59,160 bases of DNA from a virus (Duplodnaviria > Caudoviricetes): positions 1-59,160 of IMG/VR virus record IMGVR_UViG_3300042516_004109; one strand, given 5' to 3'. The position numbers and the translations under genes are program-made. Positions 6,535 through 40,836 of the stretch are shown here, piece after piece; the stretch's first letter is position 1; each line of letters starts with the position of its first letter. A model generated the notes under the pieces. It saw only the letters and a program-made list of their open reading frames with translations, was not told the DNA's origin and did no database searches.

Positions 6535-6547
6535 GCATTTATTTAGT
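6486..6547. promoter_or_regulatory. Two late promoters serving the divergent operons
   Basis: CTAAATA on + (6486-6492, inside gp4, towards gp48) and ACTAAATA on - (6540-6547, towards gp4). Confidence 0.55.
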
Positions 6548-6560
6548 AGAGAACAATATA

Positions 6561-8383: not shown

Positions 8384-9665
8384 TGGTGTAAATAACTCAA
8401 AAGACTATGAGATAAAAAGTCTAGAGTTAATTAATTCTGGTGGTCAAACGATCGATTTGCGAGACATTTTTGTTGAATTGCAAATTTTTCAAGACATCTA
8501 TTCTTCTGTCATGAGTGGAAACATACTTATCAATGATGGTAATGATACTTTTTCTAATTTTTATTTGTGCGGTAATGAATATCTAAAGGTAAGCATCGAC
8601 AAACCTGGATTAAATCGTCCATTAGAAAGACTTTTTAGAATTTACAAAACTACAGATAGAAATCCATCGACTGATTCGGGTCAAACATACCTTCTTCATT
8701 TTTGTTCTGATGAATTGATATCATCACAAACACTAAATGTGAGTAAAGCGTATAAATCGACTAAAATTAAAAATATTGTTTCAGATATTCTATTAAACGA
8801 ACTAGGTGTTGATCCACAGAGAATTGCAAATTTAGAAGATACTTCTGGATCTTTTGATCTAGTTATTCCTGGGTATAGACCATTTGAAGCAATTCAATGG
8901 GTAACTTCTCGTGGGTATGATCAAAAGAAATTTTGTTATTTCTTTTTTGAGAATAAAAATGGGTTTAATCTGATATCGTTACAAACCATGATTAAACAAA
9001 AACCATATAAAAAAATTAGATATGAGATTAAGAAATCACAAAGTGATCCAGCATTAAATAAAGATTCGATTGACGATTTTACTATTTTAAGTGATTTTGA
9101 TATGCTAACCTCAATATCAAATGGGTCATTCTCTTCTCGATTGCTATCGATTGACATATTCTCGCAAAAATTTGAGAATGTTGATTATAATTTGCTTGCA
9201 GCAGAAAGCCAAGGAAATTTAATAAACAAATTTAAACCTGTAAATTCATTTAAAAATTCTAAGAATGAAACTCTTTTCAATTCACCATTTTCATTCTATA
9301 GAACTTACCTGACAACCAATGATACTATCTCAGAAAAAAGTAATGATATTAAATTTTGGTTATTACCAAGAGCATTACACATGACGCTACTGAATCACTT
9401 TAGAATTCGAGTTGTAGTTCCTGGTGATATTGAGATGAAAGCAGGTGATATGATTGATTATGAATTTCCTTTATTTGAAAGTGCTCAAACAGGCGGTAAA
9501 AAGTTCGATAAAGCAAGAAGTGGTAAATATTTGGTTGCCTCAATCAATCATAAATTTAGAAGCACCTCCTATGAATGTGTTGCAGAATTAGTTGCTGATT
9601 CTTTTTCTGAAGCGATGCCTGTGGCAAAAGATGGATTAAATAAATTGACTAAAAAAGGTAAATAA
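8373..9665 (+). CDS. Baseplate hub protein (gp27-like)
   Basis: Between gp53 and gp5; FQDIYS, FFFENKNGF, VPGD...AGD, SGKYLV..INH motifs. Confidence 0.7.
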   Translation: MADNGVNNSKDYEIKSLELINSGGQTIDLRDIFVELQIFQDIYSSVMSGNILINDGNDTFSNFYLCGNEYLKVSIDKPGLNRPLERLFRIYKTTDRNPSTDSGQTYLLHFCSDELISSQTLNVSKAYKSTKIKNIVSDILLNELGVDPQRIANLEDTSGSFDLVIPGYRPFEAIQWVTSRGYDQKKFCYFFFENKNGFNLISLQTMIKQKPYKKIRYEIKKSQSDPALNKDSIDDFTILSDFDMLTSISNGSFSSRLLSIDIFSQKFENVDYNLLAAESQGNLINKFKPVNSFKNSKNETLFNSPFSFYRTYLTTNDTISEKSNDIKFWLLPRALHMTLLNHFRIRVVVPGDIEMKAGDMIDYEFPLFESAQTGGKKFDKARSGKYLVASINHKFRSTSYECVAELVADSFSEAMPVAKDGLNKLTKKGK

Positions 9666-9672
9666 TTAAGTT

Positions 9673-11370
9673 ATGCCAGGAGCAAAAAAAAGTTTTATTG
9701 GACTTGAGGGATTTATCTGGTATATTGGCGTCGTTGAAGATCGCCAAGACCCAGAGCAACTTGGTCGTGTCCGCGTTCGCTGCTTTGGTTGGCATACGGA
9801 TGAAAAAAGTAAAATTCCAACAGAGCAATTACCTTGGGCGCATCCAGTAATTCCTGTTAACAGTCCAAATGCATATACACCGAAAGAGGGTGATATGGTT
9901 TTTGGGTTTTTTATCGATGGCGATAATGCACAGAACCCTGCAATCATGGGTGTGCTTCCAGGAAAGCCTGATGGCAAACCGAACTATACAAATGGATTTA
10001 GTGATCCAAGAACGAGTTTTGGGTCAGCACCAAATAAACCAGATGATCCTGCAGAAGCATATCCAAAGGGTAAGTATCTCAAAGAACAAACTACAAATCG
10101 TCTTGCTCGCGGCAAAGCAGATTCAACTGTAATTGCTACAAGAAAAAAGAATCTCAAGAAGAACATCGTTTCAGCAGGTGGAGTTTCTTGGAGCGAACCA
10201 CCTCCTGCGTTTGCGCCAAAGTATCCATATAACAATGCTCTTGAAACTGAATCGGGGCATGCATTAGAATTCGATGATACTCCAGGTCAAGAGCGTATTC
10301 AATTGGCTCATCGTAAAGGTTCGTTCATTGAAATTGATCGAGATGGTAACGAAGTACACAAAGTTGTAAAAGACAATTATGAACTTGTGATGGGTTCCGA
10401 CTATGTCTTTATCAGTGGTAAATGTTCTGTCACAGTTGGTGGAGATTGCAATCTAAAGGTTGGCGGTAATATGAATGTAGAAGTTGCTGGTGGCATTAAT
10501 ATGTCAGCTGGTGGCGATATTCGTATGAAAGGCAAGAGTGTGTTTGTAGAATCAACTGCAACTATGGATTTGAAATCTGGATCTACAACGAGCATCCAAT
10601 CTTCAGGTAAATCAAGCATCAAGGGCAGTCAAGTTGCTCTAAGTGGCAGCAGTGTAGAGGTAGACGGAACTCTCAACGTTAAGTCTGGAACTAACTTGAA
10701 GGCAACTGGTGCAGATTCACGAGGCGATTCTCATAATCTAAGCGTTTCTGGTTCTGGTGCTTCTTCTGCATCGAGTGCCGCTGGTGCTGGTCTTTCTGCG
10801 GGAGGAATGGCTCCAGAAGTATCTGATCTTCAGGCTGCAACCGACGCAAATAAGGCTATTGAATCCTCAGTTAGTGCCGCTTCTTCAGTTGCGGCTGCGA
10901 CTTCTGCTGCAGCCGCTGCAATTACTTCTGCATCAGATTCTATAGTTTCTGTTGGATCAACAATTGGTAAATCTGTTGCAGGAATTACAGAAACTATCAA
11001 TAATGTATTCACCGATATAACTAAAAACGCAGACGTAATTATTAAAGATTTTAGCAGTAAATTGCCAATCGGAGAATTGACACAGAAGGTGCAAATCTTC
11101 GAAGGTGTTGTTAATATGAAGCGAGGTGAAATATTATCTCTCAAGGACGACTTGAGAAATGTAGTCATAGATAAAATCGGCAATATCGATGAACTATCTG
11201 CACTCAGAAATATTGAATTTAATGTAGATTCAGATCTACTACCACAGAAATTAACTGAAAAAATTCAAACGGTTCTTGGCAAGCGAATTTATCCTTTAAC
11301 AGAAAGCATCTCTGTAGTCGATCAACAAATAACAAATGAGATAGACAGAACGTTGAATAGATTGATCTAA
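9673..11370 (+). CDS. gp5: Baseplate central spike; no lysozyme domain; long C-terminal extension
   Basis: GVVEDRQDPEQLGRVRVRCFG OB-fold, YPYN..ETESGH..EFDDTPG.ERI, V.G beta-helix repeats. Confidence 0.92.
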   Translation: MPGAKKSFIGLEGFIWYIGVVEDRQDPEQLGRVRVRCFGWHTDEKSKIPTEQLPWAHPVIPVNSPNAYTPKEGDMVFGFFIDGDNAQNPAIMGVLPGKPDGKPNYTNGFSDPRTSFGSAPNKPDDPAEAYPKGKYLKEQTTNRLARGKADSTVIATRKKNLKKNIVSAGGVSWSEPPPAFAPKYPYNNALETESGHALEFDDTPGQERIQLAHRKGSFIEIDRDGNEVHKVVKDNYELVMGSDYVFISGKCSVTVGGDCNLKVGGNMNVEVAGGINMSAGGDIRMKGKSVFVESTATMDLKSGSTTSIQSSGKSSIKGSQVALSGSSVEVDGTLNVKSGTNLKATGADSRGDSHNLSVSGSGASSASSAAGAGLSAGGMAPEVSDLQAATDANKAIESSVSAASSVAAATSAAAAAITSASDSIVSVGSTIGKSVAGITETINNVFTDITKNADVIIKDFSSKLPIGELTQKVQIFEGVVNMKRGEILSLKDDLRNVVIDKIGNIDELSALRNIEFNVDSDLLPQKLTEKIQTVLGKRIYPLTESISVVDQQITNEIDRTLNRLI

Positions 11371-27055: not shown

Positions 27056-28609
27056 ATGGCAAACACAATTAATGTTGCAATTATTAGCACAGCAAATACC
27101 TTCAATCAGTGGCGTATTAATGACAATCTCATGGCGAACGACATTAATGAGATTGTTCGCGGCAATTTTGTAAAACCTAAAGGAAATGTTACGATTAATG
27201 AAGGCTTTTTAAGACTTGCAAATACTACTGGTGGTGTTGTTCTCGATGTTGCTGATGATACAAATATCGATGGAACTTTAACTGTATTTAATGTTGAGTT
27301 AGATAATTCAACAAATCATCTATATGTCGACGCTGGTGATATTCATTATCGCCGTATGGGTGCAACTGATCTATATCAGATTAATACAAACACAGTTATC
27401 TATGCAACAAATGTAAGCATCTCAAATGCAACTGTTGGCGGAACATTTAATGTTTCTTCAAATACGCTGATCACTGCCTCGAATGTAACGATCTCAAATA
27501 CTCAGGTTGGCGGAACATTTAATGTGGCATCAAATACCACGATTTCTTCTCAGAAAGTAAGAGTTTCGAACACAACAGCAGATGCAAGATTTAATGTTTC
27601 CCCAAACACTTACTTCTTCGGTAATCATGTCAATATAGCAAACACTCATAGTGCTGCAACCTTCGAAGTTACACCAAATACCTTTATCTTTGCAAGCGCG
27701 AATGTTTCTGCTAATGTCAATGTTGGCGCAAGACTAGAAGTTACTGGTAACGCAAATCTATACTCTAATCTTGCAGTAGCCTGGAATACATTTACTGGGA
27801 ACGCCACTGTAACTCAAAATACTGTTACAGGTAATCTTGCTGTTACCCAAAATACGTCAACGGGAAATCTTGCTGTAACTCAAAATACGACATCAGGAAA
27901 TCTCGTTGTATCAAATAGAACTCAAACAAATAATTTAACAGTAGTAAGTCTTGCAAATATCTCAAATGCTAATTTGATCAATGCAACAATCACTACATTG
28001 ACTGTAATTGATCCGATTCAAGCACCAGCAACAACTGCTGATGACAAGTATATTCTTCGTTTCGGTGCAACAACAGATGGTAACGGAACATTTAGAGTAC
28101 AACGCTCTGCAGTTTCTGGGAATGCTGAATTATTCTGGAATGATATAACTGATTCTTGGAATTTCTTAGCAAATGGATTGCCGACGACTTTAAATACTGG
28201 AAATCTATCTGCTGCAAACTTAACTGTAACAGGTGCTATCAATACAACTGGAAACATCACAGGCACGATGAAGTCTGTGAAGGATTTCTTGGATACAAGC
28301 ACTGTTTCAGGAACTGTGTCTGCAAACCTTGCTAATTCAAACTGGTTCAAATACACTTTATCAGGTAATACAACATTCAATTTTATAAATGCTCCAATTT
28401 CTGGAACTTCAATGACATTCTCGTTGATTGTAATTCAAGGATCTGGTGGTGGAAAAACTGTTACTTTTAGTAATACAGTTTACTGGGCTGGTGGTCAAAT
28501 TCCTCCTGCTACAACAAGTGCTACTGGAAATACTGATTTGTGGACATTTACAACATATGATGGTGGCACATCATATATTGGCACTCTTGCTGTTAAAGAC
28601 GCTCGATAG
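27056..28609 (+). CDS. Tail fibre-like protein
   Basis: N-terminal ANTFNQWR..N anchor motif, Asn/Thr-rich beta repeats (GNLAVTQNT), C-terminal YWAGG.IPP...TYDGG domain. Confidence 0.75.
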   Translation: MANTINVAIISTANTFNQWRINDNLMANDINEIVRGNFVKPKGNVTINEGFLRLANTTGGVVLDVADDTNIDGTLTVFNVELDNSTNHLYVDAGDIHYRRMGATDLYQINTNTVIYATNVSISNATVGGTFNVSSNTLITASNVTISNTQVGGTFNVASNTTISSQKVRVSNTTADARFNVSPNTYFFGNHVNIANTHSAATFEVTPNTFIFASANVSANVNVGARLEVTGNANLYSNLAVAWNTFTGNATVTQNTVTGNLAVTQNTSTGNLAVTQNTTSGNLVVSNRTQTNNLTVVSLANISNANLINATITTLTVIDPIQAPATTADDKYILRFGATTDGNGTFRVQRSAVSGNAELFWNDITDSWNFLANGLPTTLNTGNLSAANLTVTGAINTTGNITGTMKSVKDFLDTSTVSGTVSANLANSNWFKYTLSGNTTFNFINAPISGTSMTFSLIVIQGSGGGKTVTFSNTVYWAGGQIPPATTSATGNTDLWTFTTYDGGTSYIGTLAVKDAR

Positions 28610-28617
28610 TATTATTC

Positions 28618-30360
28618 ATGGCACGCAGACCAGATACATTAGAGAAATCGTGGATTATTGGTCCATCGCGTGGCACACAAACATTTAATGCGCCATCGAA
28701 TCTTTTCATTGATTATGGTCGTCATGTCGCAACAGTCTCTGGTCGTGGTGGCTCTGGAAATGCTCCAGATGCAGTATATACATCAAATTATACCACAAAC
28801 TACAATATTGCTTATCCAATTTCAAATCAACCGATAGCAAATCGCCCAGAAACCGCATGGACAACAAACTACAATGTTGTTTATCCAATTGCAAATCAGC
28901 CGCTTGCAAATCAACCAGCAACTGCATTTACCACGAACTATACCACAAATTATAACATTGCGTATCCAATCGCAAACCAACCAGCGACTGCATACACAAT
29001 CAATTATAACACCAATTATAATATCGTATATCCAGTTGCAAATACACCAGAAACTGGTCGACCTGAAGTTGCGTGGGTAACAAACTATAATACTAATTAT
29101 AACACTGTGTATCCGATTGCGAATCAACCAGAAGCATCAAGACCTGTGACTGCATACTCTACGAATTATAACACTGTGTATCCAGTCGCGAATCAACCAG
29201 AAGCATCAAGACCTGTGACTGCATACTCTACGAATTATAATATTGCGTATCCAATCGATGAACAACCTGTTTTTGAAGTATTAACTGGATATAATACAAA
29301 CTATAATGTGATTTATCCAGTTGCAAATCAACCTGGAACTGGAACTTATAATCCAGCAACTTCGTTTAATTGGAATGCGTATATTGAATATGAGGTTGAA
29401 AAAAGAATAAGTGCACCAGCTGAGCCATTAGAATATTCAGTATTCGTAAGTAATGTGGAAAATAATTCTGGTTCAAATAACACTTGTCCAGTACCAGTTT
29501 ACACGGTTAATGGATTAATAAACAATGCGGCAAATGGACAACAGCAATATTACGCGGAATATACTTGCACACCTGTAGGAAATAATGAAAATTACAATAC
29601 CAATTATAATGTCGCATACCCAGTTGCTAACCAACCTGCAACATACAATCTTGCTTACAATACCAATTATAATGTTGCATATCCCGTAGCAAACCAACCT
29701 GCAACTGCATATTCTATTCTTTATAATACCAATTATAATGTCGCATACCCAGTTGCCAACCAACCAGCAACTGCGTATTCTATTCTTTATAATACCAATT
29801 ATAATGTCGCGTATCCAGTAGCAAATACACCAATTGCAAACCAACCAGCGACTGTATACACAATTAATTATGCAACGAATTATAACATTGCATATCCAAT
29901 CGCAAATCAGCCAGAAGCAGCGAGACCTATAACTGCATACTCAACGAATTATAATGTCGCATATCCAGTTGCCAATCAACCGATCGCAAACCAACCTGCC
30001 ACTGCATACACAATCAATTATAACACCAACTACAATGTAATCTATCCAATCGCAAATCAACCAATAACTGCATGGACGACAAATTATAGTACCAATTATA
30101 ACATTGTCTATCCAATCGCGAATCAGCCATTGGCGAATCAGCCTATCACAAGTTATATTCCTGGAAATGTTGGATCTGCGACTAATGTTCTCGGTGTAAA
30201 TTTCCCAGGTGGACCAATCGATCTTTCTGGGTTTAGTGGTCCTTCTGGAATAGCTCCTTATATCGCTGAAACTGTAGTTCAATATTGGCAGTATCCAGAT
30301 AACTCGAATTATCCCGTAGCAGTTCCACCTGGCGGACAAATTGTTGTCAAAATCGAGTAA
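28618..30360 (+). CDS. Repeat-stalk adhesin-like protein 1 (Tyr-tetrad/Pro-pentad repeats, unique central tip)
   Basis: Non-repetitive N (TFNAP..VSGRGG.GN) and C (FPGG...YPVAVPPGGQIVVKIE) ends flank YNTNYNVAY/PVANQ repeats; paralog of next gene. Confidence 0.7.
   Translation: MARRPDTLEKSWIIGPSRGTQTFNAPSNLFIDYGRHVATVSGRGGSGNAPDAVYTSNYTTNYNIAYPISNQPIANRPETAWTTNYNVVYPIANQPLANQPATAFTTNYTTNYNIAYPIANQPATAYTINYNTNYNIVYPVANTPETGRPEVAWVTNYNTNYNTVYPIANQPEASRPVTAYSTNYNTVYPVANQPEASRPVTAYSTNYNIAYPIDEQPVFEVLTGYNTNYNVIYPVANQPGTGTYNPATSFNWNAYIEYEVEKRISAPAEPLEYSVFVSNVENNSGSNNTCPVPVYTVNGLINNAANGQQQYYAEYTCTPVGNNENYNTNYNVAYPVANQPATYNLAYNTNYNVAYPVANQPATAYSILYNTNYNVAYPVANQPATAYSILYNTNYNVAYPVANTPIANQPATVYTINYATNYNIAYPIANQPEAARPITAYSTNYNVAYPVANQPIANQPATAYTINYNTNYNVIYPIANQPITAWTTNYSTNYNIVYPIANQPLANQPITSYIPGNVGSATNVLGVNFPGGPIDLSGFSGPSGIAPYIAETVVQYWQYPDNSNYPVAVPPGGQIVVKIE
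28780..30156 (+). repeat. Coding repeat array in two arms (28780-29349, about 29590-30156)
   Basis: Recurrent aataccaattataatgtcgc.tatccagt.gc.aa.caacc. Confidence 0.95.
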
Positions 30361-30371
30361 TTTAATATTCG

Positions 30372-30378
30372 CTAAATA
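30372..30378 (+). promoter_or_regulatory. Late promoter
   Basis: CTAAATA upstream of 30404. Confidence 0.6.
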
Positions 30379-30403
30379 CTATCATACAGTGTAGTGAGCG
30401 AAA

Positions 30404-32422
30404 ATGACAAAGGCTACAAACTTAAGAAAAAGCTGGATCGGTGGAGCTTCGAGAGTAACAACGACTTTTAATGCTCCAGGAAGTTTAACACTTCCATATG
30501 GGCAGTTTAAGGGGACTGTCTCTGGTCGTGCTGGAACAGGTAACGACCCAGTTGCAGCGACATATAGCATCACTTATGCTACCAATTATAATATTGCCTA
30601 TCCGATCGCAAATCAGCCGATCGCAAACCAACCAGCGACTGCATATACAATCAATTATAACACCAATTATAATGTCGCATATCCAATCGCTAACCAGCCG
30701 ATCGCAAACCAACCAGCGACTGCGTTTACTACAAATTATAACACCAATTATAACATTGCGTACCCAATCGCAAATCAACCAGAAGCATCAAGACCCGTAA
30801 CTGCATACTCTACGAATTATAACGTTGCTTATCCGATAGCAAATAGACCAGAAGCTGCAAGACCAGCGACGGCATACTCTACGAATTATAACACGAACTA
30901 TAATGTTGCGTATCCAGTTGCTAACCAACCAGCAACTGCGTATTCTATTCTTTATAATACCAATTATAATGTTGCGTATCCAGTTGCTAACCAACCAGCA
31001 ACTGCGTATTCTATTCTTTATAATACCAATTATAATGTTGCGTATCCAGTTGCCAATCAACCAGAAGCATCAAGACCTGTAACTGCGTATTCTATTCTTT
31101 ATAATACCAATTATAATGTTGCTTATCCGATCGCGGCTCAACCAGAATCATCTAGACCTATAACTGCTTATACTACAAATTATAACACTGCGTATCCAGT
31201 GGCTAATCAGCCAGAAGCATCAAGACCAGCAACTGCATATACTACAAATTATAGTACCAATTATAATGCTCCACTTGATCCAAGCTGGAGCGCATCCATG
31301 GACTTTAGCAATGTTGGATATTTGCAAATTGGATTTGAAGAAGGCATGTATAATAATTCAAATGGATATGAATTATTCCCATATACTGGCACTGGCACAT
31401 CTTTTGATACTGGAACTCAAATTATCAGCACACTTACCACATATGTTATTACTGGCACGCATGACAATTTGGGTCCTGGCACACTAACTATTAATTATAC
31501 TAATTTTCCAGGAAGTCCAGGAAACATTGATAATCAGCCAGTTGCAAACCAACCAGCGACTGCGTATTCTATTCTTTATAATACCAATTATAATGTTGCA
31601 TATCCAGTCGGGAATCAGCCAGCAACTGCGTATTCTATTCTTTACAATACAAACTATAACGTTGCGTATCCAGTAGCCAATCAACCAGAGGCATCTCGTC
31701 CAGCAACTGCATATTCTATCACATATTCAACCAATTATAATGTCGCATATCCAGTCGCGAATCAACCAGAAGCATCAAGACCTGTGACTGCATATAGTAC
31801 AAATTACAACGTTGCTTATCCAGTTGCAAATCAACCAGAAGCATCAAGACCTGTAACTGCATATACTACAAATTATAATACTGTGTATCCAGTTGCAAAT
31901 CAACCGATTGCAAATCAACCAGCGACTGCATACACAATCAATTATAACACCAATTATAACATCGCGTATCCAATTGCAAATCAGCCAGCAACTGCGTATT
32001 CTATTCTTTATAATACCAATTATAATGTCGCGTATCCAGTTGCAAATCGACCAATTGCAAATCAACCAGCGACTGCATACACAATCAATTATAATACCAA
32101 TTATAATACTGTGTATCCAATTGCAAATCGACCAATTGCAAACCAACCAGCGACTGCGTTTACTACAAATTATAATACCAATTATAACACTGTCTACCCA
32201 ATCGCAAATCAGCCAGAAACTGGTCGACCAATAACATCATATACTCCAGGTAATCCTGGCGCATCTACAACTGTTCTTGGTGTATTTTTCCCAGGAGGAG
32301 CAGTTTCTACTCTTGCTCCGACTGTAAGTCCAACTTTGGTCGACTATGAACGATTCCCTGATAATGCAAACTATCCCGTGGCAGTGCCTCCAGGTGGTCA
32401 GATCGTAATTAAGATTGAATAA
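30404..32422 (+). CDS. Repeat-stalk adhesin-like protein 2
   Basis: Same N/C caps and repeat grammar as 28618-30360, unrelated central tip. Confidence 0.7.
   Translation: MTKATNLRKSWIGGASRVTTTFNAPGSLTLPYGQFKGTVSGRAGTGNDPVAATYSITYATNYNIAYPIANQPIANQPATAYTINYNTNYNVAYPIANQPIANQPATAFTTNYNTNYNIAYPIANQPEASRPVTAYSTNYNVAYPIANRPEAARPATAYSTNYNTNYNVAYPVANQPATAYSILYNTNYNVAYPVANQPATAYSILYNTNYNVAYPVANQPEASRPVTAYSILYNTNYNVAYPIAAQPESSRPITAYTTNYNTAYPVANQPEASRPATAYTTNYSTNYNAPLDPSWSASMDFSNVGYLQIGFEEGMYNNSNGYELFPYTGTGTSFDTGTQIISTLTTYVITGTHDNLGPGTLTINYTNFPGSPGNIDNQPVANQPATAYSILYNTNYNVAYPVGNQPATAYSILYNTNYNVAYPVANQPEASRPATAYSITYSTNYNVAYPVANQPEASRPVTAYSTNYNVAYPVANQPEASRPVTAYTTNYNTVYPVANQPIANQPATAYTINYNTNYNIAYPIANQPATAYSILYNTNYNVAYPVANRPIANQPATAYTINYNTNYNTVYPIANRPIANQPATAFTTNYNTNYNTVYPIANQPETGRPITSYTPGNPGASTTVLGVFFPGGAVSTLAPTVSPTLVDYERFPDNANYPVAVPPGGQIVIKIE
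30566..32242 (+). repeat. Coding repeat array in two arms (30566-31270, 31538-32242)
   Basis: As above; includes near-exact 66-bp tandem copies around 30900-31060. Confidence 0.95.
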
Positions 32423-32427
32423 TATAC

Positions 32428-32456
32428 TTGACATAGTCCAATAAATAAGTTATAAT
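32428..32456 (+). promoter_or_regulatory. Perfect sigma70 promoter with nested late promoter
   Basis: TTGACA (32428-33), 17 bp, TATAAT (32451-56); AATAAATA at 32440-47 within the spacer. Confidence 0.85.
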
Positions 32457-32485
32457 TTGATTTCGTTATTCTTGAGATTTATTTT

Positions 32486-33088
32486 ATGCCATATCCAGTG
32501 CAACGTTATGCTCGTGTTTTAAATCGTTTTTGTGTCGCTACAAAAGCATTTACCAAAGAAGAAGTAGAAAAAATTCTTGCTCTTGAAGACTTGCAAAAGT
32601 TTCAAAAAGGCGCAATTGGTGGTGGCACAGCAAAGGGTCAAGTCAATAAGAAAAATCGCGATAGTGATGTCATGTGGGTGATGCATGAACAAAATTCTGA
32701 CTGGCTCTATCAAAAATTCTCAAGTTTAGTTTCTGCAGTCAATTATGATCATTTCATGTATGATGTTGAAGGTTTTGAGAACTTTCAATATACAGTTTAT
32801 CGATCTAAAGACAAGCAGCACTATGATTGGCATATCGATGCTGGAAATACATCAAGCCCATTTGAACGCAAGATTAGTGCATCATTAATTCTTACCGATC
32901 CAAGTAAGTATGAAGGCGGTGAATTCGAATGTGTGATGAATGGTCGTGTTGATGAGCCTTTTGTTGCAAAAGCAGAAATTGGTGATGTGATTTTCTTTGA
33001 TTCTCGCATGCCTCATCGCGTTCGCCCAGTTACTTCTGGTGTTCGTAAATCATTAGTATGTTGGATTATGGGCAAGAATACATGGTAA
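32486..33088 (+). CDS. 2OG-Fe(II) oxygenase (prolyl-hydroxylase/PKHD-like)
   Basis: YDWHID, RKISASL.L, YEGGEF, H.V.PVTSG.RKSLVCW. Confidence 0.92.
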   Translation: MPYPVQRYARVLNRFCVATKAFTKEEVEKILALEDLQKFQKGAIGGGTAKGQVNKKNRDSDVMWVMHEQNSDWLYQKFSSLVSAVNYDHFMYDVEGFENFQYTVYRSKDKQHYDWHIDAGNTSSPFERKISASLILTDPSKYEGGEFECVMNGRVDEPFVAKAEIGDVIFFDSRMPHRVRPVTSGVRKSLVCWIMGKNTW

Positions 33089-33816
33089 ATCTAAAAAAAC
33101 TTAGATTTTGGGATAATCCAATAATTGAGTTTTATTGTCACCCAGAACTCTATGGAATTATTCCTGAGCCAAAAGCGGCAGTAAAGAGTCTGCCTGACTG
33201 GTTTAAGAATTTGGAGCCAACATTTGGTGATGGTAGAGATTCATTTGGCAATAAATCCATGTCTGCTAAAAAATGCCTTCCGCTATTAGATGGAATGTCT
33301 TTAGGATTCACTATTCCGTTATGCGGCGATGTGCATGTAAGATCAAACTATAACAATAGTCAATTTGATATAACAAATCCTCCAGGTATCAAAGTTTGTG
33401 AATTTCATGACGCCAATCAAGTTGGTGGAAATAGTGGAATTAAATTAAACCATGGCAATCCTTTGAAATTCCTCAATCCATGGGTTGTTAAAACTGCTCC
33501 AGGGTGGTCTGCATTGTTCATCAATCCAATGAACAATTATGAACACCCATTCACATGTTTGGGCGCAATGGTTGATACTGACAAATACCCAAAAGAAGTA
33601 AACTTTCCTGCTCTATGGCATGAAACAGATTCTGACTATCATATTCCTGCAGGAACACCGTTGGTGACAGTGATTCCAATTAAAAGACATTCCTTTGAAA
33701 AGAAACCTCGCGTTCGATCAATGTCACCAAAAGAATTCAAAGAGATTTCTGTAATACAAAAACGACAAAATATGCGCACACATCATTATACCTATGATTT
33801 GAGAGAGAAGAAATAA
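33082..33816 (+). CDS. Conserved phage hypothetical (DUF6065/dUTPase-like beta-clip?)
   Basis: KKCLP.LD....GF.IP, KF.NPW.VKT.PGWS, VDTD, IPAGTPL..VIP. Confidence 0.55.
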   Translation: MVNLKKLRFWDNPIIEFYCHPELYGIIPEPKAAVKSLPDWFKNLEPTFGDGRDSFGNKSMSAKKCLPLLDGMSLGFTIPLCGDVHVRSNYNNSQFDITNPPGIKVCEFHDANQVGGNSGIKLNHGNPLKFLNPWVVKTAPGWSALFINPMNNYEHPFTCLGAMVDTDKYPKEVNFPALWHETDSDYHIPAGTPLVTVIPIKRHSFEKKPRVRSMSPKEFKEISVIQKRQNMRTHHYTYDLREKK

Positions 33817-33818
33817 TT

Positions 33819-34553
33819 ATGTTTAATTTTCTTAAAAAAGATAAACCCGATCTTGAATTTATAGATTCATCTGAGGTAGTGTATCCTCACTATCCACCAA
33901 TTCTTGCAAAAGATTTAAAGCCTTTAAAAGAGCATCAAGAAAAAAAGTTTGAGAGTTATATCTTTCCACAATGTCCTGGAATGCATGATTATTCTAGAAT
34001 GGGTTATATAATTCCAGCATGGAGTAATTTTCATATCAAAGCAAACAAGGCTGGTTGCGTTGCATTTTTGGGTAGCGATGGTGAAAATAGAGATAAACGA
34101 GGCACTCCATTAGGTCAACCAAAAAATATGGATGTGAAAATTACTGATGGTTTATTTAAACTTAATGGTATCGATCCTTGTATTTGGAATTTTCCAGGTG
34201 CATGGAAAGTTTTTGGCAATGGGAATGTTTCCGCATTAGTCATGCCAGCATTTTTTCATTCAACATTTTTAGATGATCTTTATGTTTATCCAGGAGTAGT
34301 AGATTATAATAAATTTACAACGCTTAATTTTATATGTTCACCGAAACATGAATGCGAAGTTCAGATTAAAGCTGGCGAGCCAATATTGCATGTGATTCCT
34401 TTTATCACCAACAAAGATATTGTTGCAAGTTATGGTCCTGCATCAAAAGAACAAGATGACTACAGTAAAATACTTAAATGGTTTCATGAATTAAATTTCT
34501 ATAGAAAATACTATATGATTCGTAAAAAATACAAGATAATTAAAAAGAGTTAA
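33819..34553 (+). CDS. Paralog of preceding hypothetical protein
   Basis: CPGM.DY...GYIIPAW, PGVVD, IKAGEPI..VIP align by eye with 33082-33816. Confidence 0.55.
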   Translation: MFNFLKKDKPDLEFIDSSEVVYPHYPPILAKDLKPLKEHQEKKFESYIFPQCPGMHDYSRMGYIIPAWSNFHIKANKAGCVAFLGSDGENRDKRGTPLGQPKNMDVKITDGLFKLNGIDPCIWNFPGAWKVFGNGNVSALVMPAFFHSTFLDDLYVYPGVVDYNKFTTLNFICSPKHECEVQIKAGEPILHVIPFITNKDIVASYGPASKEQDDYSKILKWFHELNFYRKYYMIRKKYKIIKKS

Positions 34554-34558
34554 TATCA

Positions 34559-35521
34559 ATGGCAAAAATCTTCGTAAACATTTGTTCATATCGAGATAAA
34601 TTACTCGCACCGACTCTCTATAGTTTGTTGGAAACTGAGTCTGGACGAAACGCTATTACATATGGAGTTTTCGAACAAACAAAACTCGAAGATAGTTTGC
34701 AAACAACACATCCTGATCTTATCAATCATAAACAAATTCGATATAAACGAATTGATCCACAATTTTCTGATGGAGTTGTTTGGGCACGATGTATTAATTC
34801 GATGCAAATTTATGATGAAGATTTCCAGTATCAGATAGATTCTCATATGTTATTTGATAAAGATTGGGATAATCAATTGATACTTGATTATAATGATGCA
34901 TGTAAAGTGGCTGGGAAAAATAAAGTAGTTTTAACTTCTGGCACAAAAAATTACGATCTAGAAAATGAAAGAATCATTAAACACACTTTAACTGATGATA
35001 TTACTGTCAAGTTAGGTTATTTTCAATTCGATAAAGATCTAAGATTGCATGCTCATGGTGCATGGGTTCCAGCAACAGAGCGGGTTACTCCATCAATTCA
35101 TATCTGCGCTGGCAACTTTTTCATGCCTGTAAGTTGGATCAAAGACGTTGGATACAATACAAAGATATTTTTTGAAGGCGAAGAACAGATTTTTGTTATT
35201 AGTTCGATTCTTGCTGGATATAGCATATTCCATCATCGCAAGATTAAAGTATATCATTATCTTCGATCTGGTAGCCATGACACCAAACAAACGATTAATC
35301 CTGTTGCCAGCTCAGAAAAATTAAAGATGAATCACGATCGATCTAAGAAAGAGATCATTGATTACATCTATTCTCTATCCGAGGAACAGCTCGAACACTA
35401 TCGTCGCATAACAGGTGTCGATTATATAAATAGAAAACTAGAGGATCGTGCAATTTCTCGTAAAATCTCTCCCAATCCTGGAATTGTAAATGATTGGGAG
35501 GTGCCGAATAGAGATGGTTAA
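34559..35521 (+). CDS. Skp1-type hydroxyproline N-acetylglucosaminyltransferase-like (GT60)
   Basis: IFVNICSYRD, GVVWAR, QIDSHMLF..DWD, AGNFF, FEGEE, YH.Y: hallmark motifs of the Gnt1/GlcNAc family. Confidence 0.8.
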   Translation: MAKIFVNICSYRDKLLAPTLYSLLETESGRNAITYGVFEQTKLEDSLQTTHPDLINHKQIRYKRIDPQFSDGVVWARCINSMQIYDEDFQYQIDSHMLFDKDWDNQLILDYNDACKVAGKNKVVLTSGTKNYDLENERIIKHTLTDDITVKLGYFQFDKDLRLHAHGAWVPATERVTPSIHICAGNFFMPVSWIKDVGYNTKIFFEGEEQIFVISSILAGYSIFHHRKIKVYHYLRSGSHDTKQTINPVASSEKLKMNHDRSKKEIIDYIYSLSEEQLEHYRRITGVDYINRKLEDRAISRKISPNPGIVNDWEVPNRDG

Positions 35522-36046
35522 ATGTCTATAAAGATTCAACAATTTATTGGTGGGGGATGTACTGCAGCTGTTGGTTGTAATATAAGCCTTGAAACGAATG
35601 TTTCACCACAAAAATTCAACTTAAATAAGAGTTATTACCTTCTACGAGGTGGTATTGTTGTTGATTACGAGGGCGAGAATACAGTAAATGTTGTCTGCCC
35701 ATATAATTCTAATTGGAATCCATATGTAGATCAATGGAATTATGATAAAAATGTTATCCTTACGAGTACACCGAATACAAAATTTACAGTTGTATCTGTA
35801 ACCGAAGGTAATACAAATAATTCAGTCGCATTTACTTCTTCTGTACTGATGCTAGAAAACTCTAATTTAACAAAGACAATGAATGCTAACTCTTATTTGT
35901 TAGTTTTTGGATCCGCGTACTCTATCGATAATGTAAATTACCATAATATTAACGGTCAATCTAGAACAATATTTGCTAATTCTCCCCGAGAAGTGCAAAT
36001 ATCGACTTCTAATTCATGTGAATTGATCTATCTTGAAACTATCTAA
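35522..36046 (+). CDS. Hypothetical protein
   Basis: Abuts previous stop; beta-rich; no recognisable motif. Confidence 0.6.
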   Translation: MSIKIQQFIGGGCTAAVGCNISLETNVSPQKFNLNKSYYLLRGGIVVDYEGENTVNVVCPYNSNWNPYVDQWNYDKNVILTSTPNTKFTVVSVTEGNTNNSVAFTSSVLMLENSNLTKTMNANSYLLVFGSAYSIDNVNYHNINGQSRTIFANSPREVQISTSNSCELIYLETI

Positions 36047-36088: not shown

Positions 36089-36424
36089 ATGGCGCAATTT
36101 GTAGAAGTAGATCTAGATCAAGGAACAACCTTTAATCTTGATATTGTAGTTAAGAACGATGATGGCAGCAGAATTAATGTTGCAGGCTACACATTTTCTT
36201 CCTCAATGCGCAAATCATTTTATTCTTCAAGTGTGACAGCAAATTTAACCGTTGCAGTGATTAATGCTGCGAATGGTGATGTTAGATTTTCGCTAAATGC
36301 AGCGTCAACTGCTAACATAAAAGCAGGTCGTTATGTGTTTGATATCAAACAAATTAATACTTCAAATGTAACATCGCGTATGTTTGAGGGGATTATTACA
36401 GTTAATCCACAGGTAACGAAATGA
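36089..36424 (+). CDS. Small Ig-like virion/fibre adaptor protein (BppU-N-like)
   Basis: [20 protein letters not shown]...V.P.VT; ATGA-coupled to collagen gene. Confidence 0.65.
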
Positions 36425-39400
36425 CGACAATTTCAGTTTCATCCACTGCTGGTCCACAAGGTCCACAAGGTCCACAAGGTTCTACTGGTCCTCAAGGACC
36501 ACAAGGTCCACAAGGATCAGTTGGTCCACAAGGTCCACAAGGTCCATCTGGTTCTACTGGTCCACAAGGTCCATCTGGTGCACAAGGTGCTGCGTCAACT
36601 GTTGCTGGTCCTCAAGGACCACAAGGACCACAAGGTGTCGCTGGTCCACAAGGACCACAAGGACCACAGGGTGTAACTGGTGCACAAGGTCCATCTGGTC
36701 CACAAGGTGTCGCTGGTCCATCTGGTCCACAAGGTGATACAGGTCCTCAAGGTCCTCAAGGTGTCACTGGTGCACAAGGACCACAGGGTGCAACTGGTCC
36801 ACAGGGTCCTCAAGGTGTCACTGGTGCACAAGGACCACAAGGTCCGCAAGGCGTCACTGGTGCACAAGGTCCATCTGGTGCTCAAGGTAATCAAGGTAAT
36901 CAAGGTGCACAAGGCATTCAAGGTTTAACAGGTGATACTGGTCCACAAGGTCCTCAAGGTCCTCAAGGTGTTGCGGGACCACAAGGTCCACAAGGTGTCG
37001 CTGGTCCACAGGGTGTCGCTGGTGCACAAGGTCCATCTGGTGCTCAAGGTAATCAAGGTGCACAAGGCATTCAAGGTTTAACAGGTGATACTGGTCCACA
37101 AGGTCCACAAGGTGTCGCTGGTCCATCTGGTCCATCTGGTCCACAGGGTGTTGCTGGTCCACAAGGTCCATCTGGTGCTCAAGGTAATCAAGGTGCACAA
37201 GGCATTCAAGGTTTAACAGGTGATACTGGTGGACAAGGTCCATCTGGTCCATCTGGTCCATCTGGTCCACAAGGTGTCGCTGGTCCACAAGGTGTCGCTG
37301 GTGCACAAGGTCCACAAGGTGATACAGGTCCATCTGGTCCATCTGGTCCACAAGGTGTCGCTGGTCCACAAGGTGTCGCTGGTCCACAAGGTCCACAGGG
37401 TGATACAGGTCCACAAGGTCCTTCTGGCGTGTCAAATGTTCCTGGTCCGCAAGGTCCACAGGGTGATACAGGTCCTCAAGGTCCTCAAGGTCCACAAGGC
37501 GTCACTGGTCCACAAGGTCCATCTGGTGCTAAAGGTGATCAGGGTGAATTTGGTGGCGCAACTTTTGAGTACATCTACTTAACAAATACTGCAAACACAG
37601 ATCCTGGTGTAGCAAATTTAAAATTCGATAATATAACATTTTCTTCTGTATCACGATTGTATATCGACTTTACAGATTTAAGTACTGCAAACGTATTTAA
37701 TTATTTGCAAACTATTGATGACTCTACGTCAACAATCAAAGGAACATTTAAAGTTGCAAATACTGCAAATGTAAGTGAATTTGCATACTTTAATATTAAT
37801 GGATCTCACGAACACGTTTCAAGTTATTTCTCTGTTCCTGTTGCACATTTAAGTGGTGTTACAAGTTTTTCAAATTCTACCAATGTCATCATCACATTTG
37901 TTCGTACTGGTGATAAAGGTGATACAGGTCCACAAGGTCCGCAAGGTCCGCAAGGTCCACAGGGTGCTGGTCCTCAAGGTCCACAGGGTCCTCAAGGTCC
38001 ACAGGGTCCTCAAGGTCCACAGGGTCCACAGGGTCCCCAAGGACCACAAGGTGTCACTGGTGCAAGAAATTACACTGTAACGAATAGTGGTGCCAGTCAT
38101 TATGTGATTGATGGCGCAAATGATCCTACATTGTATTTGATGCGCGGATTCACATATGAATTCTTTGTAAGTGCATCTGGACATCCTTTCTGGATCCAAA
38201 CAGTTCCTGCGCCATACAGTGTTGGAAATGTTTACAGTAGTGGTGTAACAAATAATGGTGACGATGTTGGCACTGTAATATTTGCGGTTCCATATAATGC
38301 ACCAAATACTCTTTATTATGTTTGCCAAAACCATTCTTCAATGTCTGGTACAATTATTATCAGTGATGTGGGTCCAGTTGGTCCTCAAGGTCCACAAGGT
38401 GTAACTGGTGATACAGGCAATCCTGGACCACAAGGTCCAACTGGTCCAGGTGGTAATACTGGTGCACAAGGTCCACAGGGTGTTGTTGGTCCACAGGGTC
38501 CACAGGGTCCACAAGGTCCAACTGGCGCAGATTCAACAGTTGCTGGTCCTCAGGGTCCATCTGGTCCATCTGGTGCTCAAGGTAATCAAGGTGCACAAGG
38601 CATTCAAGGTTTAACAGGTGATACTGGTCCACAAGGACCACAAGGTCCACAAGGTCCACAAGGTCCTCAAGGTGATGCATCGAGTGTTGCTGGTCCACAA
38701 GGACCACAGGGTCCATCTGGTGCTCAAGGTAATCAAGGCGCACAAGGTTCACAAGGCATTCAGGGTTTAACAGGTGATACTGGTCCACAGGGTCCACAGG
38801 GTCCACAAGGTGATGCATCAAGTGTTGCTGGACCACAGGGTCCACAGGGTCCGCAAGGTTCTACTGGTGACACAGGACCAACAGGTCCACAAGGACCACA
38901 AGGTCCACAGGGTGCTGGTCCACAAGGTCCGCAAGGTCCTCAAGGTGATGCATCAACTGTTGCTGGTCCACAAGGACCACAAGGTCCACAAGGACCACAA
39001 GGTGCTGCGTCAAGTGTTGCTGGTCCACAGGGTCCACAGGGAGCAATTGGTCCGCAAGGTCCGCAGGGCGTCACTGGTGCAAGAACATATACAGTGACGA
39101 ATGTCGGAGCTGGTGCTTATTCAATCGATGGTTCTAGCAATCCAACATTAAATTTACTGCGTGGATTTACTTATGAATTTAGTATAAGTGCTTCTGGACA
39201 CCCTTTCTGGATTCAAACAGTTTCTGGTGCATATAGTTCTGGAAATATATATTCATCAGGCATTACAAATAACGGCACTCAAGTTGGAACGCTAACATTC
39301 GCTGTTCCTTATGATGCACCAAGTACTCTTTATTATGTTTGCCAATTCCACGCATCGATGCAGGGTGTGATTAATATTAGTGATGTTGGTCCTATTGGTC

Positions 39401-40836
39401 CACAAGGTCCACAGGGACCACAAGGACCACAAGGTTCAATTGGATCAACTGGTGATGTTGGTCCTCAAGGTCCGCAAGGTCCGCAAGGTCCACAGGGTCC
39501 GCAAGGTGCTGGTCCTCAAGGTCCACAAGGACCACAAGGTGATGCGTCAAGTGTTGCTGGTCCGCAAGGTCCACAAGGTCCTCAAGGTGTCACTGGTGCA
39601 CAGGGTCCACAAGGTCCTCAAGGTGTCACTGGTGCACAGGGTCCACAGGGTCCTCAAGGTGTGACTGGTCCACAAGGTCCACAGGGTCCTCAAGGTGTGA
39701 CTGGTCCTCAAGGTCCTCAAGGTGATACAGGTCCACAGGGTCCTCAGGGTCCACAAGGACCACAAGGTGTTAAGGGTGATACTGGTGAATTTGGTGGAGC
39801 AACATTTGATTATGTGTTTAGTGCTAATACAGCAAACACCGATCCAACAGCTGGTTTCGTCAAGTTTAATAATGCAACACTTCTATCTGCAACTGAGATG
39901 TATATTGATAACATCGATCGTTTAAGCGCAAATGTGTTTAATTACCTGAACACAATCGATGACTCAACATCAACAATCAAAGGCACGTTCAAGATTGCAA
40001 ATTCTGCAAACGTTTTAGAATATGCATTTTTCAATATTAACGGTACTCATCTTCATGTTACTGATTGGTTCGTTGTTCCTGTTGCTGGATTGAATACAAC
40101 ACTTGTCGGATCAAACTTCTCAAATAGCACTAATGTCATCATCACATTTGTTCGTACTGGTGATAAAGGTGACGCAGGTCCACAAGGTCCTCAAGGTGTG
40201 ATTGGTCCTCAAGGTCCTCAAGGTCCACAAGGTGTCACTGGTCCACAAGGACCACAAGGTCCGCAAGGTGTCACTGGTCCACAGGGTCCACAGGGTCCAC
40301 AAGGTGTCATTGGTGATACAGGACCACAAGGTCCTCAAGGTGTGATTGGTCCTCAAGGTCCTCAAGGTCCTCAAGGTCCACAAGGTGTCACTGGTCCTCA
40401 AGGTCCACAAGGTCCACAAGGTCCTCAAGGACCACAAGGTCCTCAAGGTCCTCAAGGCAACACAGGTCCAACTGGACCAAATGAAGGTGCAACGCTTAAA
40501 GCTGTAAAAGACTTTATGGTTTCGAATACAAACACTAATGGCGCAAATACTGTCAGTCTTACAACTGCTAACTATTTCCGTCATACATTAACAGCAAATG
40601 TGACATTTACATTCACGGATGCACCAACTTCTGGAACAGGTCAAATGTTCTCGCTATTATTGTCGCAAGATGGAACTGGTGGAAGATTGCCATCATTCTC
40701 CAATACAATTTATTGGGCTGGTGGATCTATTCCTCCTGCGACAACAGATGCAAATGCTCGTGACTTGTGGACATTTATCACATATGATGGTGGTACGACA
40801 TATTGGGGCACTTTGACTATGAAGGACCTTCGATAA
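36421..40836 (+). CDS. Collagen-like fibre with two globular A domains, two cupredoxin-like domains and a C-terminal fibre domain
   Basis: Long (GPQ)n tracts interrupted by duplicated domains; H...CxxHxxM twice. Confidence 0.88.

Follow-up and report, generated by a model that had tools for sequence, protein, structure and literature searches.

Mirror-complementary repeat arms point to a fold-back fibre in an uncultured T4-like freshwater phage

We found that the two long repeat arms of a 672-aa viral protein (protein A) are mirror-complementary, such that Tyr-ending units in one arm face Pro-starting units in the other, and that relatives with different repeat patterns preserve this relationship. 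Protein A is encoded at 30404..32422 on the + strand of the window, which is the whole stretch of DNA analysed (59,160 nt), downstream of baseplate hub and wedge genes and of a tail-fibre-like gene. We consider it probable that A serves an uncultured T4-like myophage of fresh water as a fold-back fibre, in which the two caps form the base, the two arms, paired antiparallel, form the stalk, and the middle of the chain forms the distal tip. The fibre is probably receptor-binding, and we take the paralogue encoded beside it (protein B) to be a second virion fibre of the same phage.

Results

The arms of protein A mirror one another with unit types exchanged

Protein A begins with a conserved, beta-rich N cap (aa 1-54; 30404..30565, + strand) that ends in a G-x-G-x-x-G-N motif and a pseudo P unit, and in which K9, W11, Y32, G33, G41 and G46 are invariant or nearly so in an alignment of 41 homologues. 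The N arm (aa 55-287; 30566..31264, +) is followed by a tip domain free of repeats (aa 288-378; 31265..31537, +), a C arm (aa 379-613; 31538..32242, +) and a C cap (aa 614-672 plus the stop codon; 32243..32422, +), in which G626, V627, P630 and G631 are invariant in the homologue alignment. To parse the arms mechanically, we took Pro together with the 4 residues after it as a P unit, and 4 residues of which the last is Tyr as a Y unit. Each arm consists of 19 alternating blocks and 52 units, with 27 Y and 25 P units in the N arm (233 aa) and 27 P and 25 Y units in the C arm (235 aa). The N arm has no His, Cys or Gly; His is absent from both arms of A and of B, and Gly occurs 0-2 times per arm.

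The initial annotation had proposed that the two arms are complementary when one is read backwards and Tyr and Pro blocks are exchanged, and a scripted parse reproduced this in 19 of 19 blocks. The N arm reads Y3 P3 Y3 P3 Y3 P3 Y2 P3 Y3 P2 Y3 P2 Y3 P3 Y3 P3 Y2 P3 Y2, and the C arm, in reverse, reads P3 Y3 P3 Y3 P3 Y3 P2 Y3 P3 Y2 P3 Y2 P3 Y3 P3 Y3 P2 Y3 P2. Two places allow some latitude: the first Y block is Y3 when the conserved cap motif serves as the anchor of the parse and becomes Y4 if the final four residues of the cap are included, while each innermost block, whose end is not closed by another block, may have a degenerate third unit, with which the match would hold anyway (18/18 if the innermost block of each arm is omitted). 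With a standing for the module P3Y3, b for P2Y3 and g for P3Y2, the N arm is aagabbagg and the C arm bbaggabaa, and the "reverse complement" of the C arm (a pairing with a, b with g) is aagabbagg, the order of the N arm.

The order of the arms does not come from a repeat at the DNA level. As the initial annotation had stated, there is no inverted DNA repeat in the A ORF, and thus a DNA palindrome is rejected as the source of the mirror order and no DNA-level process explains that order with unit types swapped. Direct duplication of one arm, also denied in that annotation, is rejected since module order differs between the arms. The ORF does have tandem DNA repeats, whose three periods (66, 69 and 81 nt) equal the lengths of the modules. 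The naive chance of 1/4320 that had been attached to the match is arithmetically right given the composition, but it is a post hoc figure for one protein only; therefore, the family data carry the real weight.

Relatives with different patterns obey the same rule

The C cap is present in two genes of the record, A and its paralogue B (580 aa; 28618..30360, +), and both proteins have a layout of two caps and two repeat arms around a variable middle domain. B has caps as in A, but its tip and block pattern differ. The pattern begins 3 3 2 3 3 2 3 3 3 3 2 3 2, and these outer blocks are mirror-complementary (13/13). Inward of them lie one P2Y3 : P2Y3 pair (22:22 aa) and a tip junction resembling that of P0003, and unit numbers are mismatched at the three innermost comparable blocks.

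The family comprises 49 matches among 1.84 billion representative proteins, 98 proteins from two word-based searches and 38 viral loci; both caps could be aligned between A and 39 relatives, and between B and 43. In the strict count, which covers the 45 parseable full-length relatives and leaves out 25 of 70 that the Y/P rule cannot parse (most of them written in other dialects), 159 of 166 closed blocks match across 37 distinct patterns. The matching block-size pairs are (2,2) in 49 cases, (3,3) in 106 and (1,1) in 4, with 7 mismatches. With proteins from viral contigs included, 298 of 305 closed blocks match (62 patterns), and with two further unit forms allowed, 320 of 327 match (61 distinct patterns); the relatives share ancestry, such that these counts are not independent events, though the patterns differ. 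Perfect agreement extends to independent long patterns: 27/27 in L006_1, L007_1, L009_1 and L015_1, 21/21 in L005_1 and L010_1, 19/19 in L001_1/L004_0 and in L002_1, 16/16 in L005_0 and L010_0, 15/15 in L011_1 and 14/14 in L007_0. In controls, arms taken from different proteins matched at 2475 of 4647 blocks (53%), and a two-block slide gave 61-65% matches. In a permutation test, as suggested in the initial annotation, none of 20,000 within-protein permutations reached 159 matches (mean 122.5, sd 4.7).

We considered that the rule might have arisen by coincidence in a repeat-rich sequence or through mis-assembly of the repeats, given that it was seen post hoc in one protein and that such repeats are hard to assemble from short reads. 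The permutations argue against coincidence, and independent contigs from different samples carry patterns that differ yet are mirror-complementary, up to 27/27. Mis-assembly would ruin such order rather than make it, and the ORF lacks inverted DNA repeats. This explanation, to which we assign next to no likelihood, is effectively refuted.

The rule acts on single units, in that it is obeyed by blocks of 1, 2, 3 and 4 units, including the four-unit blocks of L020_0 (5/5). This bears on a second explanation, a compact two-layer or solenoid-like packing in which blocks are short transverse strands and block i lies on block i, giving a short, thick rod (~0.5 nm per block). Beta-solenoids with Asn ladders typically have tandem repeats like those seen here (22-27 aa, with Asn and aromatic positions conserved), and matched block sizes between the arms would be needed in such a rod too. 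However, neighbouring blocks within an arm are often very unequal (8 aa beside 15 aa), whereas partners across the arms match in unit number; thus, the tight constraint is that of lateral pairing across the arms. Moreover, with 0-2 Gly per arm, block junctions lack Gly, and they also lack other turn formers. We regard the compact rod as quite unlikely.

Since the differing patterns all obey the mirror rule, insertions and deletions in one arm are compensated in the other. This expectation, set out in the initial annotation, clearly holds for the family counts above, but four or five homologues on short metagenome contigs are uncompensated, which is the case that the annotation had named as refuting. 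The N and C arms measure 58 and 185 aa in P0001, 120 and 54 aa in P0079, 35 and 100 aa in P0082, and 62 and 46 aa in P0085, a near-twin of P0082; in P0038, the C arm falls one module short of that in a relative, P0028. Each of these proteins comes from a contig of 3-12 kb, and the inequality is either real or due to mis-assembly. A search of related loci for a close second copy of P0082 or P0079 gave already known loci only. In Logan contigs from four lake-water runs, the non-repetitive parts are covered letter for letter, and none of the pieces listed bridges the repeat arms; we set aside three low-depth "joints", which have sides of 20-21 letters with foreign letters between them. Arm lengths across the family, measured with a tolerant parser, correlate at r=0.71, but many outliers are parse failures in other dialects, and we place no weight on this value.

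A sub-code and further dialects

Complementarity extends below the level of unit type. Across the arms, Ile in position 2 of a block's first Y unit goes with Glu in position 2 of the partner block's middle P unit in 111 of 115 pairs, and none of 20,000 within-protein shuffles reached 111 (mean 91.5, maximum 105). Mirror order is also seen in two other repeat dialects with the same caps, three dialect examples having been looked at. In L029_0, long (L) and short (S) loops follow one order in the two arms, L L S L L L S S (8/8), and stems of 10 and 11 aa are complementary across the arms (7/7), both as read from the listing. In L030_1, 6 of 8 7-residue units of the N arm share a mirrored index with 7-residue units of the C arm.

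The tips, in turn, move between arms. An A-type tip (60-87% identity) is also found in P0001, P0002, P0004, L030_1 and L031_1, with different arms or caps, and a B-like tip occurs in L004_0, L001_1 and L002_1, which are the nearest arm and cap relatives of A. Such exchange between close relatives is as expected of a receptor-binding end.

Structure prediction resolves the caps, and the databases searched give no match

In an AlphaFold2 monomer of A, pLDDT was 76-94 for aa 10-50 and 84-96 for the C cap, and about 30 for the N arm. For A and the short homologue P0046 alike, the caps alone were confident, the arms having pLDDT of 30-45 and no secondary structure; thus, the models give no arm geometry, although confident caps fit a single base domain made from both chain ends. 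A three-copy complex prediction of P0046 (alignment A2) gave no verdict (score 0.00, controls not run).

No described family was recognised in the initial annotation, and the searches agree. Protein A has no match in Pfam (E<=1) or the PHROG families and no matching chain in a PDB sequence search. A PDB profile search gave nothing at E<0.01, with matches at E 0.02-0.045 being at chance level. Foldseek searches of the PDB with both models, which are of low confidence beyond the caps, found nothing at E<=0.001; the weak top matches (a C2 domain, BclA and the Bxb1 tail tip) are not significant. The ESM Atlas gave no usable match and no model. The GenBank phage collection gave no hit by megablast of 28000-33000 or by tblastn of A or of its C cap. 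Pfam searches of eight short relatives found no family; an FAO_M match on P0003 has no passing stretch and resembles a low-complexity artefact. Two known repeat folds were rejected along with these searches. A collagen-like triple helix (PF01391) would have Gly at every third residue, and neither that nor a Pfam match at E<=1 is seen in A; for a pentapeptide-repeat beta-helix (PF00805), there is again no Pfam match at E<=1, and the 5-residue units occur in runs of only 1-4, alternating with 4-residue units. In the literature searched, we found no description of such proteins or motifs.

The mirror rule itself requires only that blocks of the two arms with equal mirrored index be neighbours, whether or not they belong to the same chain, and the AlphaFold2 outputs contain no contact information. 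The N arm might therefore pair with the C arm of another chain, in a head-to-tail dimer or higher assembly whose end domains would come from different chains and whose "tips" would sit mid-rod. Several points favour pairing within the chain: an exchangeable, variable middle domain suits a free distal end better than a mid-rod position; very short members with arms of 2-4 blocks (e.g., P0050, P0121) keep the layout, and these would close most simply as a hairpin within the chain; the T4 gp37 precedent is intrachain; and pairing within one chain is, as a general principle, kinetically favoured. We judge pairing between chains to be improbable, albeit the least improbable of the alternatives, and discuss below the intrachain fold-back.

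Downstream genes

The fibre genes are followed by a cassette of four genes, among them potential modifying enzymes. A 2OG-Fe(II) oxygenase of the prolyl-hydroxylase-type family (32486..33088, +; PF13640, Pfam E=1.4e-14) begins 64 nt past the A stop codon, and an oxygenase adjoins the cap-bearing fibre gene in 35 related loci, all those that extend that far. A glycosyltransferase of a GlcNAc family (34559..35521, +; PF11397, Pfam E=4.2e-25) also belongs to this cassette, which is conserved behind the fibre genes by synteny. The oxygenase is a candidate modifier of the fibre, and, by their adjacency, oxygenase and GlcNAc transferase together may modify the Pro units. A collagen-like protein encoded by a separate gene (36421-40836) is an alternative substrate for the cassette.

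Discussion

The initial annotation read the protein as a fold-back zipper, and mirror covariation among homologues supports this, with contact between the arms predicted. In such a fibre, the chain would leave the base domain and later return to it, and the N and C caps would jointly build that base. The N and C arms would lie side by side in antiparallel register to make a long stalk, and the non-repetitive middle would become an exchangeable distal tip. Within the stalk, a 4-residue Tyr-ending unit would stand opposite a 5-residue Pro-starting unit, with the arms trading roles every 1-4 units. Because the arms would be antiparallel, the terminal Tyr of a Y unit would line up with the leading Pro of the partner unit, so that one Tyr-Pro contact per unit pair is the likely "rung". 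The optional pair would be the middle unit of a block (NTNY opposite PIANQ or PExxR), won or lost in both arms jointly. Stalk length would then be set by the number of unit pairs; with 52 pairs, strand geometry suggests roughly 70 nm for A if the arms are extended. Units of 4 and 5 residues differ in extended length, which the zipper geometry does not account for. By likeness to phage fibres in general, the protein probably functions as a trimer.

We are evenly divided on whether this amounts to a new architectural class among fibrous proteins, in which a heterotypic xxxY:Pxxxx unit code sets the register and length of a non-helical stalk with two arms, with an optional middle pair, an Ile/Glu sub-code and, in each dialect, its own complementary units. 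Unit-for-unit compensated indels between distant halves of a protein, in dozens of natural variants, amount to covariation of a type that is otherwise usual only for RNA stems. From sequence alone, the mirror rule predicts which distant parts of the chain are in contact, and it does so for a fold not modelled by present structure predictors. If a structure confirms it, the zipper would join coiled coils, collagen, beta-helices and the gp37 needle as a way of building fibres, with length tuned by unit pairs. Such fibres would evolve through compensated insertions and deletions, much as RNA stems do, their folding may depend on the neighbouring cassette for prolyl hydroxylation and glycosylation, and the code would lend itself directly to the design of rods of chosen length. 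Since the proteins appear to be exchangeable-tip fibres of widespread uncultured T4-like phages of freshwater and other aquatic habitats, they bear on host range. In practice, the mirror rule provides an internal check on the assembly of such repeat genes in metagenomes.

Several known systems share one or another of these features. The gene content of the cassette resembles Skp1-type prolyl hydroxylation and GlcNAc transfer, in that a PF13640 oxygenase and a PF11397 transferase lie behind Pro-rich fibre genes, conserved in related loci; the likeness is in the cassette only. The gp38 adhesin of phage S16 reportedly consists of extended strands, neither alpha-helix nor beta-sheet, that lie side by side in a compact sandwich with Gly-rich motifs. 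The fold is named as a polyglycine-II sandwich in PMC6851490. Protein A would share with it the use of laterally packed extended strands in a phage adhesin, but its arms have 0-2 Gly and would form a two-arm stalk rather than a compact sandwich, and Foldseek gave no match to it.

The fold-back topology itself has precedents in the T4 gp37 tip and in SMC-type arms. In SMC/Rad50-type proteins, N- and C-terminal segments share a head, long antiparallel coiled-coil arms lead to a distinct domain at the far end, and irregularities are mirrored between the arms. The likeness to A is an analogy of topology only: SMC/Rad50-type arms are alpha-helical and belong to chromosome ATPases, whereas the A arms have no predicted helix and carry Pro every 5 residues in the P blocks (half of the blocks), there is no homology, and A would be a virion fibre.

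A further comparison is with T4 gp37, whose tip comprises the collar D10, a needle and a head; D10 is made of residues 811-881 and 1010-1026, bracketing the needle, in which His residues hold seven iron ions, and gp37 is trimeric (PMC6957217), as tail fibres generally are (PMC12143355). As is proposed for A, gp37 belongs to a T4-like phage fibre and sends its chain out to a distal receptor-binding head and back, such that N- and C-terminal segments form the proximal domain. The two have no sequence or fold match, and the arms of A and B lack His, in contrast to the His-bound iron of the gp37 needle. No arms like those of A, in which ~235 residues of tandem units follow a complementarity rule and indels are compensated, are described for gp37. 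Whereas the fold-back of gp37 concerns its tip, that of A would cover the entire protein.

Gene setting and layout

Gene A (30404..32422, + strand, 672 aa) encodes an N cap, an N arm, a tip, a C arm and a C cap. The same layout, with conserved caps at the two ends and two long repeat arms separated by a non-repetitive middle, is found in its paralogue B (28618..30360, + strand, 580 aa), which lies directly upstream, and these are the only two genes in the window that carry the C cap. The window, 59,160 bases long, makes up a linear virus record whose completeness is estimated at 34%. On the 5' side of the fibre genes are genes for the hub and wedge of a T4-like phage baseplate and for a tail-fibre-like protein; the wedge protein shares no more than 37-39% identity with its counterparts in Pelagibacter, Methylophilales and Synechococcus myophages. 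We found 78-91% of the sampled words of A and B in 18 runs labelled lake water, four of which gave pieces at least 99% identical to the A/B region. Thus, the phage is a freshwater phage. In two freshwater metatranscriptome runs, only 6-8% of the sampled A/B words were present.

The arms of A mirror each other with Tyr and Pro units exchanged

We parsed the arms mechanically, defining a P unit as Pro plus four residues, a Y unit as a tetrapeptide whose last residue is Tyr, and a block as a run of like units. The N arm of A (aa 55-287) reads Y3 P3 Y3 P3 Y3 P3 Y2 P3 Y3 P2 Y3 P2 Y3 P3 Y3 P3 Y2 P3 Y2, and the C arm (aa 379-613), read backwards, P3 Y3 P3 Y3 P3 Y3 P2 Y3 P3 Y2 P3 Y2 P3 Y3 P3 Y3 P2 Y3 P2, with 52 units in each arm. 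The parse reproduced the 19/19 match reported in the initial annotation: the arms are mirror-complementary, in that the block counts of one equal those of the other read backwards with Y and P swapped. In terms of modules a (P3Y3, 27 aa), b (P2Y3, 22 aa) and g (P3Y2, 23 aa), the N arm is aagabbagg and the C arm bbaggabaa, which becomes aagabbagg when reversed with b and g exchanged.

Tandem repeats in the DNA of A have periods of 81, 66 and 69 nt, and a search of the ORF for inverted repeats found none. Thus, from this repeat search and the module order, the mirror order is neither a DNA palindrome (no inverted repeat) nor a direct duplication of one arm (ruled out by the module order), which bears out the earlier statement to that effect.

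Block counts covary between arms across the family

B has a block pattern unlike that of A (3 3 2 3 3 2 3 3 3 3 2 3 2 ...), and its outer 13/13 blocks are mirror-complementary. We collected 35 relatives of similar length and 63 shorter ones; 1.84 billion representative proteins yielded only 49 hits, and 38 viral-contig loci with relatives provided 36 ORFs with both caps. A strict parse found both cap anchors in 70 proteins, of which we used the 45 whose arms each held three or more blocks; the 25 omitted mostly belong to other repeat dialects, in which the family's caps surround other repeat types.

In these 45 proteins, which represent 37 distinct patterns, 159/166 blocks closed on both sides were mirror-complementary. 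By comparison, N and C arms taken from different proteins matched at 2475/4647 blocks (53%), and sliding by two blocks gave 61-65%. None of 20000 permutations reached 159 (mean 122.5, sd 4.7, maximum 143), which answers the permutation test on parsed units proposed at the outset. The match was 298/305 (62 patterns) with viral-contig proteins added, and 320/327 (61 patterns) when 12-residue P-unit and 5-residue Y-unit variants were allowed. Long independent patterns matched at 27/27 (four contigs), 21/21, 19/19, 16/16, 15/15 and 14/14 blocks, and L006_0, a viral-contig ORF counted by eye from its printed sequence, at 25/25. The rule holds whether a block has one, two, three or four units (L020_0 has a four-unit example). 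Since the relatives share ancestry, block matches are not independent, and the argument rests on the differing patterns. This comparative evidence is decisive that the mirror order is more than chance, and we exclude chance or artefact as its origin.

Exceptions to the rule

The expected compensation of arm indels in homologues held for 320/327 closed blocks and failed in five proteins with clearly unequal arms: P0001 (58 vs 185 aa), P0079 (120 vs 54 aa), P0082 (35 vs 100 aa), its near-identical relative P0085 (62 vs 46 aa), and P0038, whose C arm is one module short compared with P0028. All five come from contigs of 3-12 kb, and a search among the related loci found no second copy of them; they may be natural variants or repeat mis-assemblies. 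In B, the three innermost comparable blocks mismatch unit for unit. In this region (29230-29650, aa 204-343), the module pair beside the tip is P2Y3 : P2Y3 (22:22 aa) rather than the usual P2Y3 : P3Y2, and beyond it, at a tip junction that P0003 also has, three C-arm blocks (Y3 P2 Y3) face a single P2 block. These irregular blocks may be part of a tip type common to B and P0003.

Residue-level covariation and other dialects

Three-unit blocks have the forms u1-u2-u3 (e.g. TINY NTNY NVAY) and p1-p2-p3 (e.g. PIANQ PEASR PVTAY). In two-unit blocks the middle unit is missing; thus, the optional element is the u2:p2 pair, gained or lost in both arms together. Moreover, Ile at the second position of u1 goes together with Glu at the second position of p2 in the partner block in 111/115 pairs from 21 representative proteins, a number reached in none of 20000 partner shuffles within each protein (mean 91.5). 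This association is position-specific covariation of residues hundreds of positions apart.

Mirror order was also present in both dialects that we checked. Manual reading of L029_0 gave loops L L S L L L S S outside-in in both arms, with 10-residue and 11-residue stem elements exchanged between arms at 7/7 places. In L030_1, the N arm has eight 7-residue units, six of which have one of equal length at the corresponding mirrored index; opposite the remaining two are 8-residue variants of that unit type. Other repeats between the same caps occur at loci L027, L029, L030 and L031 and in P0004, P0059, P0062 and P0064; they include PxxYNxxY octapeptides, PASYNTV-type heptads, 7/8-residue xGNxxASY units and Gly/Pro-rich units.

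A proposed fold-back stalk with an exchangeable tip

DNA duplication or inversion cannot produce a mirror order with exchanged unit types, and its simplest cause is a physical constraint by which the ith block counted from the N terminus would lie beside the ith counted from the C terminus. The arms would then pair antiparallel, placing the two caps together and the middle domain at the opposite end. In this register the Tyr closing each Y unit would be level with the Pro opening the partner P unit, and hence we propose that each unit pair makes a single contact between an aromatic ring and a proline, probably with side chains of Asn and Gln in between. With extended arms and standard strand geometry, the stalk of A would measure ~70 nm (52 unit pairs x ~1.3-1.4 nm).

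Pairing of arms between chains rather than within one chain would obey the same mirror rule, but it would put the variable domain in the middle of a rod, and the very short family members also speak against it; we disfavour it. We likewise disfavour a compact two-layer or solenoid-like packing, given that matching across arms is at the unit level, that neighbours within one arm are strongly unequal, and that the arms lack turn-forming residues.

AlphaFold2, with alignments of 41 sequences for A and 43 for its 296-aa relative P0046, gave pLDDT of 76-97 for both caps in the two proteins, and about 30-45 without secondary structure for their arms. The N and C caps would pack on each other in the fold-back stalk; the AlphaFold2 output gives no contacts. 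The antiparallel fold-back zipper suggested in the initial annotation is supported by strong covariation across homologues and not yet by structure, and we regard A as most likely a phage fibre whose stalk folds back on itself.

The tip type of A (31265-31537) also occurs, with other arms, in P0001, P0002, P0004, L030_1 and L031_1; the arms in the last three are unrelated dialects. The nearest relatives of A by caps and arms (L004_0, 85%; L001_1, 72%; L002_1, 70%) all have a B-like tip. The middle domain acts as a swappable module. This tip swapping, and a site among baseplate and fibre genes, fit a receptor-binding fibre with its base docked on the virion. By analogy with the usual state of tail fibres (PMC12143355), the fibre is presumably a trimer.

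Neighbouring genes

A conserved cassette behind the fibre genes (32486-36046) encodes, in order, a 2OG-Fe(II) oxygenase, a DUF6065 protein, a 244-aa ORF, a PF11397 GlcNAc-type glycosyltransferase and a 174-aa ORF, after which comes a 1471-aa collagen-like protein (36421-40836; PF01391, 15 stretches). The oxygenase (PF13640, prolyl-hydroxylase-type family) starts 64 nt past the stop of A. It is found in 35/38 related loci, the other three ending short of its position, and adjoins a cap-bearing fibre gene in all 35 (34 downstream; upstream in L035), starting 0-137 nt past the fibre stop in 32/35 and ~55 nt past the fibre match in L013 and L014. Adjacency by itself suggests that the Pro units of the fibre may be hydroxylated and glycosylated by the cassette; alternatively, its substrate may be the collagen-like protein.

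The oxygenase ORF (ending at 33088) and the DUF6065 ORF (starting at 33058) overlap by 31 nt (33058-33088), and this tight spacing recurs in related loci. The collagen-like gene has a GC content of 0.46-0.48, against about 0.36 around it. Its C-terminal part matches the C-terminal end of homologues of ORF 27056-28609 in many loci (50-58% identity); thus, these flanking fibre-like proteins (27056-28609 and 36421-40836) seem to share a C-terminal domain. On the 263-kb viral contig of L036, four tandem genes (5013-9937; 386-417 aa), each with a terminal C cap motif and without a match to the N-cap search pattern, precede the oxygenase.

Comparison with known systems

We found no Pfam or PHROG family for A, B or eight short relatives, no PDB chain matching by sequence or profile, no significant fold match to predicted models, no matching GenBank phage record, and no description in the full-text literature of these motifs or of fold-back repeat fibres. 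The boldest reading is a novel class of fibrous architecture governed by a code of paired units, and we give it about an even chance. The arms of SMC/Rad50-type proteins share the fold-back topology but are helical. In function and topology, the nearest described system is the tip of T4 gp37, in which a collar domain is formed by residues 811-881 and 1010-1026 around a needle held by seven His-bound iron ions (PMC6957217); in contrast, the arms described here lack His, are three times longer and are made of tandem units. The polyglycine sandwich of S16 gp38, named in PMC6851490, is likewise a non-standard extended-strand adhesin, but one based on Gly.
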